Below are positions 25,309-25,474 of a stretch of DNA of 64,000 nucleotides, piece by piece; position 1 is the stretch's first letter; each line of letters opens with the position of its first letter. The position numbers were made by a program, and so were the translations under genes. Below the pieces are notes generated by a model. That model was not told the DNA's origin, did not search any database, and saw only the letters and a program-made list of their open reading frames with translations. This DNA is from Gemmatimonadaceae bacterium (lineage in GTDB: Bacteria > Gemmatimonadota > Gemmatimonadetes > Gemmatimonadales > Gemmatimonadaceae): NCBI GenBank assembly GCA_036508915.1, contig DATCGM010000044.1:1096-65095 (forward strand). Direction: 5' to 3'.

Positions 25309-25342
25309 CAAAAAAATCCGGCCCTCTCGGTGAGAGAGGGCC
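25309..25342 (-). terminator. Intrinsic terminator/attenuator hairpin in the metY 5' leader
   Basis: On the minus strand, GGCCCUCUC-UCACC-GAGAGGGCC (9-bp GC-rich stem) is followed by GGAUUUUUUUG. It ends about 46 nt upstream of the metY ATG. Confidence 0.75.
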
Positions 25343-25372
25343 GGCGGCGAACCGAGAGTGTCTCGGGTCAGC

Positions 25373-25474
25373 TCACGCGCTGGTGCACCATGCACGCACG
25401 CGCCGGTCCGTCTCTCCGAGGGGAGAGCCGCACATGCACATGCGACACATCGAGGTGACCGCGAATCGTGTCAT
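25373..25474 (-). CDS. Candidate leader peptide ORF (33 codons) rich in Met and Cys codons
   Basis: ATG at 25474. Product is [33 protein letters not shown], with a TGA at 25375-25373. It lies between an upstream hairpin and the metY attenuator hairpin. No obvious Shine-Dalgarno sequence. Confidence 0.45.

Follow-up and report, generated by a model that had tools for sequence, protein, structure and literature searches.

How do bacteria of the family Gemmatimonadaceae control the genes that build homocysteine from sulfide? Methionine genes are textbook cases of control by S-adenosylmethionine (SAM) riboswitches, T-boxes or MetJ/MetR-type proteins, and leader-peptide attenuation has been described mainly for Trp, His, Leu, Thr, Ile/Val and Phe. 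The window analysed here, a stretch of 64,000 nucleotides (nt) from a Gemmatimonadaceae bacterium (contig DATCGM010000044.1), carries on its minus strand a metY-metX/hom operon preceded by a long leader, in which a short open reading frame (ORF) rich in Cys and Met codons lies ahead of an intrinsic terminator. A sequence-only reading of this stretch had recognized the layout of a trp/his-type attenuator, which comparative and folding evidence now supports. We consider the leader likely to be a ribosome-mediated attenuator of metY. It is assigned to the classical attenuator type because all the hallmarks of that type that are open to computational testing were found: a leader ORF, a cluster of pathway codons, a terminator with no later promoter and a predicted antiterminator that depends on a masking ribosome. 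The anatomy of the leader, its conservation, its association with metY and its predicted alternative folds are direct observations, which we describe in turn.

The leader ORF and its conservation

Three features define the element.

25373 to 25474, minus strand: leader ORF of 33 codons plus UGA (ATG 25474-25472, TGA 25375-25373)
25430 to 25450, minus strand: regulatory codon cluster AUG UGU CGC AUG UGC AUG UGC (M-C-R-M-C-M-C), codons 9-15
25310 to 25344, minus strand: terminator T2, made of segment 3 (CCGGCCCUCUC, 25344-25334), segment 4 (GAGAGGGCCGG, 25328-25318) and A+U7 (25317-25310)

The ORF and its codon run match the sequence exactly as they had first been read. The cluster packs three Cys and three Met codons into seven, with Cys at positions 10, 13 and 15, i.e., not in tandem. 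The T2 stem-loop, CCGGCCCTCTC-TCACC-GAGAGGGCCGG (25344-25318), contains 11 base pairs (bp), nine of which are G-C, with an energy of -25 kcal/mol. The GC hairpin and its U7 run to 25310 are therefore as the sequence-only reading described them, its figure of 9 bp being a slight undercount. That reading was also right to place the ORF stop before the terminator, the gap being 28 nt to the 11-bp stem, or 30 nt to a 9-bp stem starting at 25342, instead of the ~31 nt first given. The U-tract ends 46 nt before the metY ATG, as stated originally. Four terminator-like sites were found in 1.6 kb, compared with 0.7 ± 0.8 expected. At the end of the ORF, UGAGCUGA (25375-25368, minus strand) places stops in two frames 5 nt apart and at a fixed distance from the terminator, and ribosomes in the 0 and +2 frames would both halt there.

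Relatives were gathered in two ways. A MetY-based scan of one genome per species gave 80 loci (numbered with the prefix L), of which 21 with complete upstream sequence carry a homologous leader; these are labelled Gemmatimonadaceae, other Gemmatimonadota, Longimicrobiales and Acidobacteriota/Thermoanaerobaculia. Metagenome contigs were scanned with a gene-agnostic DNA pattern, a loose one whose 120 hits were mostly random coding sequence; only those showing both a Cys cluster and a terminator were retained, L092 being excluded as a false match. Together, the two routes gave 36 distinct leader peptides on Gemmatimonadota and Acidobacteriota-labelled contigs. Every one of the 36 versions has an AUG-initiated ORF, an in-frame Cys(/Met) cluster ending in UGC, a hairpin between segments 1 and 2 (the 1:2 hairpin), a segment 2 (core GAGRCGGACSG) whose complement is found in segment 1 as well as in the terminator 5' arm, a stop codon before the terminator and the terminator itself, T2 being present in every relative. 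The core is invariant in all 21 leaders that were reached via MetY protein similarity, independently of the motif. In these complete genome-derived leaders, an AUG ORF occupies the Cys frame in 21/21, and the other two frames hold three AUG ORFs in total. The downstream gene is metY at all genome loci and, as judged by tblastn, in 17/17 metagenome copies with readable downstream sequence.

The cluster itself varies by codon. Cys codons are present in 36/36 leaders and the last UGC (25432-25430 in the window) is invariant across the family, while cluster Met is missing in five of 36 (the ICRPCPC type). The nine codons ending at the invariant UGC contain on average 2.7 Cys and 1.75 Met, as illustrated by TSMCRMCMC (window), NSMCRISMC, NLICRPCPC and MCCCLISMC, as well as SMCMCMCMC, MCMCCMCLC, TMMMCMCTC and AVRICMCMC. 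Among 22 same-length relatives, codon 10 is TGT in 21, codon 11 is CGC in 20 and codon 15 is TGC in all, and codons 9, 12 and 14 switch among ATG, ATT and CCG. Repeat units of the ATGTGC hexamer are seen in the cluster, two in the window (25441-25430) and a perfect fourfold tandem in L016 (2834-2860); slippage of this repeat would gain or lose Met-Cys codon pairs in frame.

Measured from the AUG to the core, the spacing departs from that in the window by multiples of three in 34/36 leaders. L015 and L016 change frame after the Cys run and end in an unrelated peptide tail with a UAG stop, but they nevertheless retain the nucleotides GGCUCUCC...GGAGAGGCGGACGG and the RNA core. Orthologous leaders drift in their N-terminal codons, in how many Cys/Met codons they hold and even in the post-cluster frame. 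Alignment of orthologs, proposed by the sequence-only reading as a check, thus finds the AUG, the frame, the in-frame Cys cluster, the pre-terminator stop and the terminator kept while other codons drift. So selection would appear to act at the translation level on the start codon, the in-frame Cys(/Met) codons, the open frame and the pre-terminator stop, and downstream of the cluster on the RNA sequence rather than on the peptide. From this conservation, we infer that the leader ORF is translated. Exact look-up in a collection of ~15 billion predicted proteins returned none of eight leader-peptide versions, and the leader ORFs have therefore evidently never been called as genes.

A second, unrelated family of short ORFs (sORFs) stands before metY in Clostridia. 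It was found at nine of 43 Clostridia-type loci (L043, L045, L048, L050, L051, L052, L060, L069 and L076), with none on the reverse strand and a mean of 0.07 in shuffles. These sORFs lie ~60-250 nt upstream of metY, each with a Shine-Dalgarno sequence, and share a conserved terminal Arg-Met-Cys, e.g., MEFLRNDPQIILSERMCRC, MYEYAVTLSRNRMCCC, ...SARMCCCCC and MKTYLIYLEFGRMCC. The general pattern is ...RMC(C/R/M)..., at times with a single Cys (L050, L060). At these loci, which have no Rfam match, no clear intrinsic terminator is seen behind the sORF; a conserved palindrome-like box, ACATAGTAATTCTATAGGAAAT, is seen between promoter and sORF. They may represent a different Cys- or Met-Cys-dependent leader mechanism. 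We count this unrelated family as an independent recurrence in favour of the attenuator reading.

Predicted alternative folds

Four further segments of the leader RNA take part in the folds.

25422 to 25444, minus strand: segment 1 (CGCAUGUGCAUGUGCGGCUCUCC), 5' strand of the 1:2 hairpin in the minimum free energy (MFE) fold, overlapping the last Cys/Met codons
25395 to 25417, minus strand: segment 2 (GGAGAGACGGACCGGCGCGUGCG), pairing with segment 1 (OFF) or, via 25416-25400, with the terminator 5' arm (ON)
25374 to 25398, minus strand: hairpin H2b (GUGCGUGCA-UGG-UGCACCAGCGC), inner arm of the predicted three-way junction, ending at the ORF stop
25352 to 25366, minus strand: hairpin H3 (CCGAGA-CAC-UCUCGG), between stop codon and terminator, present in both states

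The free leader RNA has an MFE fold of -87.4 kcal/mol, which consists of the 1:2 hairpin, H3 (109-123) and the terminator (131-157), with positions numbered from the A of the leader AUG. The leader is more stable than dinucleotide shuffles (z = -3.8), none of 200 shuffles being as stable. The 1:2 hairpin has an inner stem, CUCUCC (48-53)/GGAGAG (58-63), and an outer stem, CGCAUGUGC (31-39)/GCGCGUGCG (72-80), which holds the last Met and Cys codons and in which A34-U77, U35-G76 and G36-C75 pair the codon cluster with segment 2. The ON state was modeled by masking nt 1-40, 1-49 or 1-55, to mimic a ribosome whose A site holds a Cys codon, on a transcript ending at segment 3. In the masked optimal fold, segment 2 (59-75, GAGAGACGGACCGGCG) pairs with the terminator 5' arm (129-143), closing a three-way junction over H2b and H3. 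All four pairings that had been proposed by eye exist, CUCUCC/GGAGAG, CCGAGA/UCUCGG and CGCAUGUGC/GCGCGUGCG in the MFE fold and GGAGAGACGGACCGG/CCGGCCCUCUCUC once segment 1 is masked. The terminator/antiterminator alternative that the sequence-only reading had suggested looking for is thus recovered, with the terminator on free RNA and the antiterminator when a ribosome sits on the Cys/Met codons.

The two exclusive duplexes have energies of -27.4 kcal/mol (2:3) and -26.6 kcal/mol (3:4). Among 18 diverse leaders, 16 show this ON-state pairing over at least 70% of the terminator 5' arm, and the Acidobacteriota type, which has an unrelated middle region, is among them. When the ribosome has reached the stop codon, it has left segments 1 and 2 behind; these re-pair in the fold, and the terminator forms. 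The segment 2 core occurs only once in the 64-kb window.

These pairings are kept in relatives. Across 30 sequences, the inner pairs CUCUCC/GGAGAG and GC/GC are maintained in 29-30, and 86% of the cells of H2b and 93% of those of T2 are paired. H3 shows compensatory variants, including C-G to A-U (CAGAGA/UCUCUG, CCGGGAC/GUCCCGG and GACC/GGUC), and segments 2/3 show compensatory A-U to G-C changes in L015 and L016. Overall, pairing upkeep is 83-84%, compared with 33-55% in slid controls.

We therefore propose a model of ribosome stalling and kinetic competition between structures for the switch spanning 25474-25310 (switch 2). A ribosome would start at the leader AUG. When charged Cys-tRNA, and probably Met-tRNA, is plentiful, it would pass the cluster and reach the UGA at 25375-25373; segments 1 and 2 would then re-pair, segments 3 and 4 would pair and the polymerase would terminate at U7, near 25310. 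When charged tRNA-Cys or tRNA-Met is scarce, it would stall on the cluster and cover segment 1, leaving segment 2 to pair with newly made segment 3 in the three-way-junction antiterminator, which would block T2 and allow read-through into metY. In the absence of translation, the 1:2 hairpin would form and termination would be the default.

A putative SAM-II-like switch upstream and the operon

Upstream of the leader ORF lie a promoter-like element and a second putative switch.

25605 to 25633, minus strand: promoter-like element, with a -35 TTGACA (25633-25628), a 17-nt spacer and a -10 TAAATA (25610-25605)
25522 to 25594, minus strand: divergent SAM-II-type aptamer (Rfam SAM_alpha, RF00521; 24.3 bits, E = 0.0026)
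25494 to 25534, minus strand: terminator T1 from the terminator scan, a 15-pair stem GGAAGGUCUCGGGCG/CGCCUGGGACCUUUU followed by UCUUUUU

A CTTGACA -35 box is kept at the same relative position in an alignment of orthologous leaders, and transcription is predicted to start near 25598-25596, with the leader AUG ~120 nt from that start. A strict consensus promoter scan of 24800-26400 returned no promoter-like site; the TTGACA/TAAATA pair is not called by it because its -10 ends in A. Within the 46 nt that separate T2 from the metY ATG, the same scan likewise returned none, so that metY expression must come from read-through of T2. A separate metY promoter after T2 was rejected, none being found by the scan and only 46 nt being available. 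The predicted leader transcript of ~335 nt would thus have one promoter and two termination switches in series.

By eye, the sequence-only reading had found no SAM-I core. As regards the leader ORF and T2, the Rfam search gave no match at the gathering score in the whole window, and at E ≤ 10 in 25150-25750 it placed no leader, T-box, SAM-I, SAM-IV or SAH family on them, the only match inside the leader-ORF element being whalefall-1 (16 nt, plus strand, on segment 2, E = 7.1). Riboswitch-type control is nevertheless indicated upstream, where a SAM-II-like attenuator stands in tandem. The sequence-only reading had named a known SAM, SAH or T-box class on the same helices as the finding that would count against an attenuator. 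Since the sub-threshold SAM-II-like match lies off the leader-ORF helices, on other helices and with a terminator of its own, no such finding was made.

The upstream element resembles SAM-II (RF00521 SAM_alpha/RF01726) in its P1 (CCGCGG 25586-25581/CCGCG 25561-25557), its AUUUG...UUGCA loop motifs, its GCUAAA tail (25547-25542), its terminator and its methionine-pathway gene. Unlike the SAM-II models, the window copy belongs to a divergent subgroup (window, L003, L013, L014 and L024) and at 24.3 bits it fails the Rfam gathering score of 36; the close relatives L013 and L024, which share the divergent form, score 24-25.4 bits. Elements at the same position exceed the gathering score in L015 (36.9 bits) and L016 (40.3 bits), and Gemmatimonas-type loci L021-L029 carry SAM-II at 40-44.5 bits. 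In an alignment that includes these canonical Gemmatimonas copies (A3), the AUUUG/UUGC loop and the GCUAAA tail do not vary, and a C-G pair of P1 is replaced by U-A in a compensatory manner. T1, which is kept in tandem leaders, is the expression platform of the element. In truncated transcripts, the aptamer 5' half can pair with the T1 5' arm, a competition of the kind expected of an OFF switch. These features point to a divergent SAM-II-type riboswitch with a terminator platform at 25594-25494, which would bind SAM. Rfam matches of ctRNA_p42d and BjrC68 on T1 were dismissed as mere terminator likeness. T1 was also rejected as the terminator of fmt, the upstream gene, because the fmt stop (25678) is separated from it by the SAM-II-like aptamer and a promoter-like element that is conserved.

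The two modules are combined differently in different relatives. SAM-II and the leader peptide occur in tandem in the window, L149, L003, L013, L014, L024, L015 and L016. In most Gemmatimonadaceae relatives and in the Acidobacteriota-type copies, only the leader peptide is present, immediately after the promoter. Gemmatimonas-type loci have canonical SAM-II with no leader peptide, plus an extra conserved structured element with a terminator upstream. The modules have evidently been gained and lost independently, as judged from these sequences. The extra element of L021-L029 lies ~210-260 nt upstream of canonical SAM-II (e.g., L028:2580-2720) and consists, in order, of GUGCGCGGCGAGUUCCCCGAUUUGACGGGCCGCGCAC, a covarying hairpin, AUCCGUCUAAGUCGUGG... 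and the terminator-like GCGGGCCGUUUUG. It has no Rfam match at E ≤ 5, and it could be another tandem sensor that replaces the leader peptide.

In the combined model, SAM binding at switch 1 (25594-25494) would allow T1 to form. Since T1 and T2 are in series, the operon would be expressed only if SAM runs low and the ribosome is slow at Cys/Met codons. A SAM-I plus adenosylcobalamin (AdoCbl) riboswitch pair on Bacillus clausii metE, reportedly described by Sudarsan et al. in 2006, likewise has two terminator OFF switches in series, with both signals having to be low; unlike in that pair, the second switch here is predicted to be a translated leader peptide. The logic would suit the pathway. The metY-metX/hom operon would make homocysteine from aspartate semialdehyde and sulfide, and homocysteine from direct sulfhydrylation would feed methionine directly and could feed cysteine via reverse transsulfuration.

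The genes of the locus are as follows.

26631 to 25678, minus strand: fmt, the neighbour upstream of the leader
415 nt between fmt and metY, minus strand: intergenic leader
23935 to 25275, minus strand: metY, O-acetylhomoserine (OAH) sulfhydrylase (NCBIfam TIGR01326, 631 bits)
23938 to 21791, minus strand: metX-hom fusion, homoserine O-acetyltransferase plus homoserine dehydrogenase (NCBIfam MetX, Hom)
21677 to 20244, minus strand: rsmB, downstream of metX-hom

NCBIfam matches bear out the gene order metY then metX-hom that had been read from the sequence. The metY ATG is at 25263, preceded by a Shine-Dalgarno GGAG (25275-25272), and its stop is at 23937-23935. In the start-codon survey, the GUG start of metX-hom overlaps this stop (GUGA), which makes translational coupling of the two genes within one operon probable. 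MetX and homoserine dehydrogenase are joined in a single ORF of ~715 amino acids; on the long metX-hom ORF, the NCBIfam domains cover residues 72-380 (MetX) and 410-762 (Hom). The window MetY is 89-93% identical to proteins from Gemmatimonadaceae metagenome-assembled genomes, which places the window in this family. Its lower-scoring NCBIfam matches, all below curated cut-offs, include two named bifunctional OAH/O-acetylserine (OAS) sulfhydrylase, and MetY-family enzymes are often annotated in this way. This suggests that MetY supplies sulfur for cysteine too, via reverse transsulfuration or OAS sulfhydrylase activity. The operon with its long leader sits between fmt and rsmB (20244-26631, minus strand), which are usually neighbours in a def-fmt-rsmB cluster. 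In relatives, the genes upstream of the leader differ from those found here.

Alternative explanations and known systems

Several observations weigh against reading the leader as an attenuator that senses Cys and Met. The leader AUG has a U/C-rich tract upstream and no Shine-Dalgarno sequence, by contrast with the GGAG of metY. Initiation would therefore be Shine-Dalgarno-independent, relying on the U/C-rich tract or, in some relatives, on near-leaderless mRNA: in relatives lacking the SAM-II module, the TTGACA/-10 pair is only ~37-68 nt upstream of the AUG, and in L006 and L008 the -10 box is ~10 nt from it, a spacing that suggests nearly leaderless mRNAs. On a full-length transcript with the ribosome mask, the terminator is still the equilibrium winner, which means that antitermination has to be kinetic, as it is in the classical attenuators. 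In this GC-rich context, composition-matched shuffles of segment 2 give 2:3 duplexes with energies just as good as the real one. Neither the OFF nor the ON structure shows covariation in excess of column shuffles, because the family is too conserved, and RNAalifold on a MAFFT alignment gave no clean consensus, owing to two competing structures combined with conserved sequence, and was left unused as evidence. Core conservation in the metagenome copies is circular because these hits were chosen by a pattern containing the core, which makes this evidence independent only for the 21 genome-derived leaders. Repeats of the (AUGUGC)n type encode Cys in the +1 frame too and pair with GCGUGCGUGC, so that RNA pairing could account for part of the codon pattern. 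Finally, the five of 36 leaders with no cluster Met imply that Met sensing is not family-wide.

The last two points lead to the possibility that the same attenuator senses cysteine only, its AUGs being by-products of AUGUGC hexamer expansion and GCGUGCGUGC pairing. Cys in all 36 leaders with an invariant last UGC, the five ICRPCPC-type leaders, the frequent swap of Met for Ile or Pro, the perfect (ATGTGC)x4 of L016 and the pairing of cluster AUG nucleotides with segment 2 (A34-U77, U35-G76, G36-C75) all fit this view. However, Met is ~9-fold enriched (1.75 per nine codons vs ~0.2 expected, assuming ~2% protein Met) and is stacked without the hexamer in TTMMMCMC and HSMMCMCMSMC. Moreover, AUG-to-CCG swaps of the L009 type break the pairing uncompensated, so pairing alone does not dictate the codons. 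The unrelated Clostridia sORFs also keep Met beside Cys (R-M-C), and the product of the operon, homocysteine, is the direct precursor of methionine. We regard a cysteine-only sensor as a possible but rather unlikely explanation. Of the Met and Cys sensing first proposed, the Cys half is borne out by conservation, and Met codons are frequent but dispensable in part of the family; judged on codon content, Cys sensing is likely and Met co-sensing plausible, about an even call.

The other alternatives dispense with the ribosome as a sensor of tRNA charging. An untranslated structured RNA, i.e., a riboswitch or protein-binding leader that uses T2 with an incidental ORF in GC-rich, stop-poor sequence, would account for RNA-level conservation beyond the cluster (L015 and L016 shift frame there with nucleotides kept), the lack of a Shine-Dalgarno sequence at the leader AUG, a frame that stays open for 146 codons upstream in the window, where stops are rare, and a predicted ON state with a three-way junction, a common aptamer shape. 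It is nevertheless improbable, as the AUG, the frame and the pre-terminator stop persist in 36/36 leaders from two phyla, the other two frames of the 21 genome-derived leaders hold only three AUG ORFs, and AUG-to-core indels are multiples of three in 34/36. Furthermore, the cluster varies by whole Cys/Met codons with nucleotides not fixed, the junction and inner hairpins differ between Gemmatimonadota and Acidobacteriota types, unlike a ligand pocket, and there is no match to an Rfam family. Marginally less probable is a scenario that keeps translation, in which a nascent Met-Cys or Arg-Met-Cys peptide arrests the ribosome on a small molecule (homocysteine, SAM or a thiol), like TnaC or antibiotic-sensing leaders. 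The recurrence of R-M-C or C-R-x-x-M-C (C-R-M-C in the window, with codon 11 CGC in 20/22 close relatives) speaks for it, as do the Clostridia sORFs, which strictly end in R-M-C and sometimes have a single Cys, atypical for a codon-run sensor. On the other hand, Arg is absent from SMCMCMCMC, AMCMCCMCLC and TMMMCMCTC, Cys/Met codons occur in freely varying number, like those of starvation sensors, and no peptide upstream of the cluster is conserved across lineages. Least probable is an independent gene for a Cys-rich small protein with its own terminator and no role in metY regulation. A start, a stop and a strong terminator are present and Cys-rich peptides can bind metals, but no promoter-like site lies between T2 and metY, which thus needs read-through, the peptide sequence of the C-terminal half is lost upon frame shift, the element is found only ahead of metY, and segment 2 is complementary to both ORF and terminator.

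The attenuator reading places the leader beside the classical trp, his, leu, thr, ilv and pheA leader attenuators of Proteobacteria (bioRxiv 10.1101/834739; PMC2965389). As in these, a short ORF holds pathway codons, the 5' part of the 1:2 hairpin lies over those codons, 2:3 and 3:4 pairings are exclusive, termination is the default when there is no translation, and the genes make the sensed amino acid. In contrast to the classical leaders, the metY leader has Cys codons with or without Met that alternate and form no homopolymeric run. Its ORF crosses segment 2 and stops ~28 nt before the terminator, and its predicted antiterminator closes a three-way junction. In addition, it lacks a Shine-Dalgarno sequence, has a putative riboswitch attenuator ahead of it and is found in Gemmatimonadota/Acidobacteriota-labelled hosts. 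No Rfam leader family matches it in sequence.

Cys-codon leaders have been described elsewhere. In Rhodobacterales, uORFC-8-2 upstream of cysS is a predicted Cys-sensing terminator-type attenuator (Brewer et al. 2021, PMC8632094). It shares with the metY leader a conserved AUG upstream ORF, Cys codons (mostly UGC in uORFC-8-2) in the first stem and a U-run terminator. Its own features are two tandem Cys codons at positions 14-15, the cysS gene, an alphaproteobacterial host and two stems only, from which the metY leader is set apart, by description, in having two to five Cys codons interleaved with Met, another sequence and SAM-II upstream; the downstream gene is metY in 17/17 copies, and Cys codons are at 10, 13 and 15. 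In Actinobacteria, Cys-run leader peptides without terminators precede cys/cbs operons (Seliverstov et al. 2005, PMC1262725), and mycobacterial polycysteine leaderless sORFs sequester a Shine-Dalgarno sequence, their translational action having been demonstrated experimentally (Canestrari et al., bioRxiv 10.1101/834739). Shared with the actinobacterial leaders are an upstream Cys-codon ORF, the lack of a Shine-Dalgarno sequence, sulfur amino-acid genes and a readout of Cys-tRNA supply, and some relatives of the metY leader are nearly leaderless like the mycobacterial sORFs. The mycobacterial elements, however, have consecutive Cys codons at the 3' end of the ORF and no intrinsic terminator. 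In the metY leader, Cys codons alternate with Met mid-ORF and pair with segment 2, a strong terminator and an antiterminator are conserved, the metY Shine-Dalgarno sequence is outside the switch and, given the predicted transcription start, the ORF in the window would not be leaderless. Because gene, layout and mechanism differ, we place the metY leader outside both the mycobacterial and the Rhodobacterales families.

Our full-text literature search turned up no account of a metY leader peptide, a Met-codon attenuator, SAM-II in Gemmatimonadota or a riboswitch plus leader-peptide tandem like this one. The original remark that its author knew of no described Met/Cys leader-peptide family thus stands for metY and has to be qualified for Cys-codon leaders, which have only recently become known, in Actinobacteria and before one alphaproteobacterial tRNA-synthetase gene. 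The present leader would extend ribosome-mediated attenuation to the sulfur-assimilating step that makes homocysteine, to two poorly studied soil phyla and to a mixed Cys/Met sensor. A SAM riboswitch followed by a leader peptide would be a compact natural two-input gate, and the tandem and single layouts show modular evolution. The ORF escapes gene callers, and annotation pipelines and Rfam-type resources would gain a new family. More tentatively, a single leader might read SAM (through a SAM-II-type element) and the charging of both Cys-tRNA and Met-tRNA, which would make it the first attenuator to sense Met codons and, for a methionine-pathway operon, the first tandem of riboswitch and leader peptide; in this speculative scheme, the Clostridia sORFs would suggest widespread Met-Cys control of direct sulfhydrylation, possibly with an Arg-Met-Cys peptide component.

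Two observations concern the distribution of the leader. L149, a 50-kb metagenome contig (Ga0208587_1000073), has a leader identical to that of the window and a MetY 99.8% identical to it, and probably comes from the same population. The same leader core and terminator are found on the Acidobacteriota/Thermoanaerobaculia-labelled contigs L018, L019, L036, L146, L154 and L157, where MetY is 74-76% identical to that of the window, compared with 71-73% for the genus Gemmatimonas. These values suggest that metY and its leader were transferred horizontally as a unit, or else that the contigs are mis-binned.

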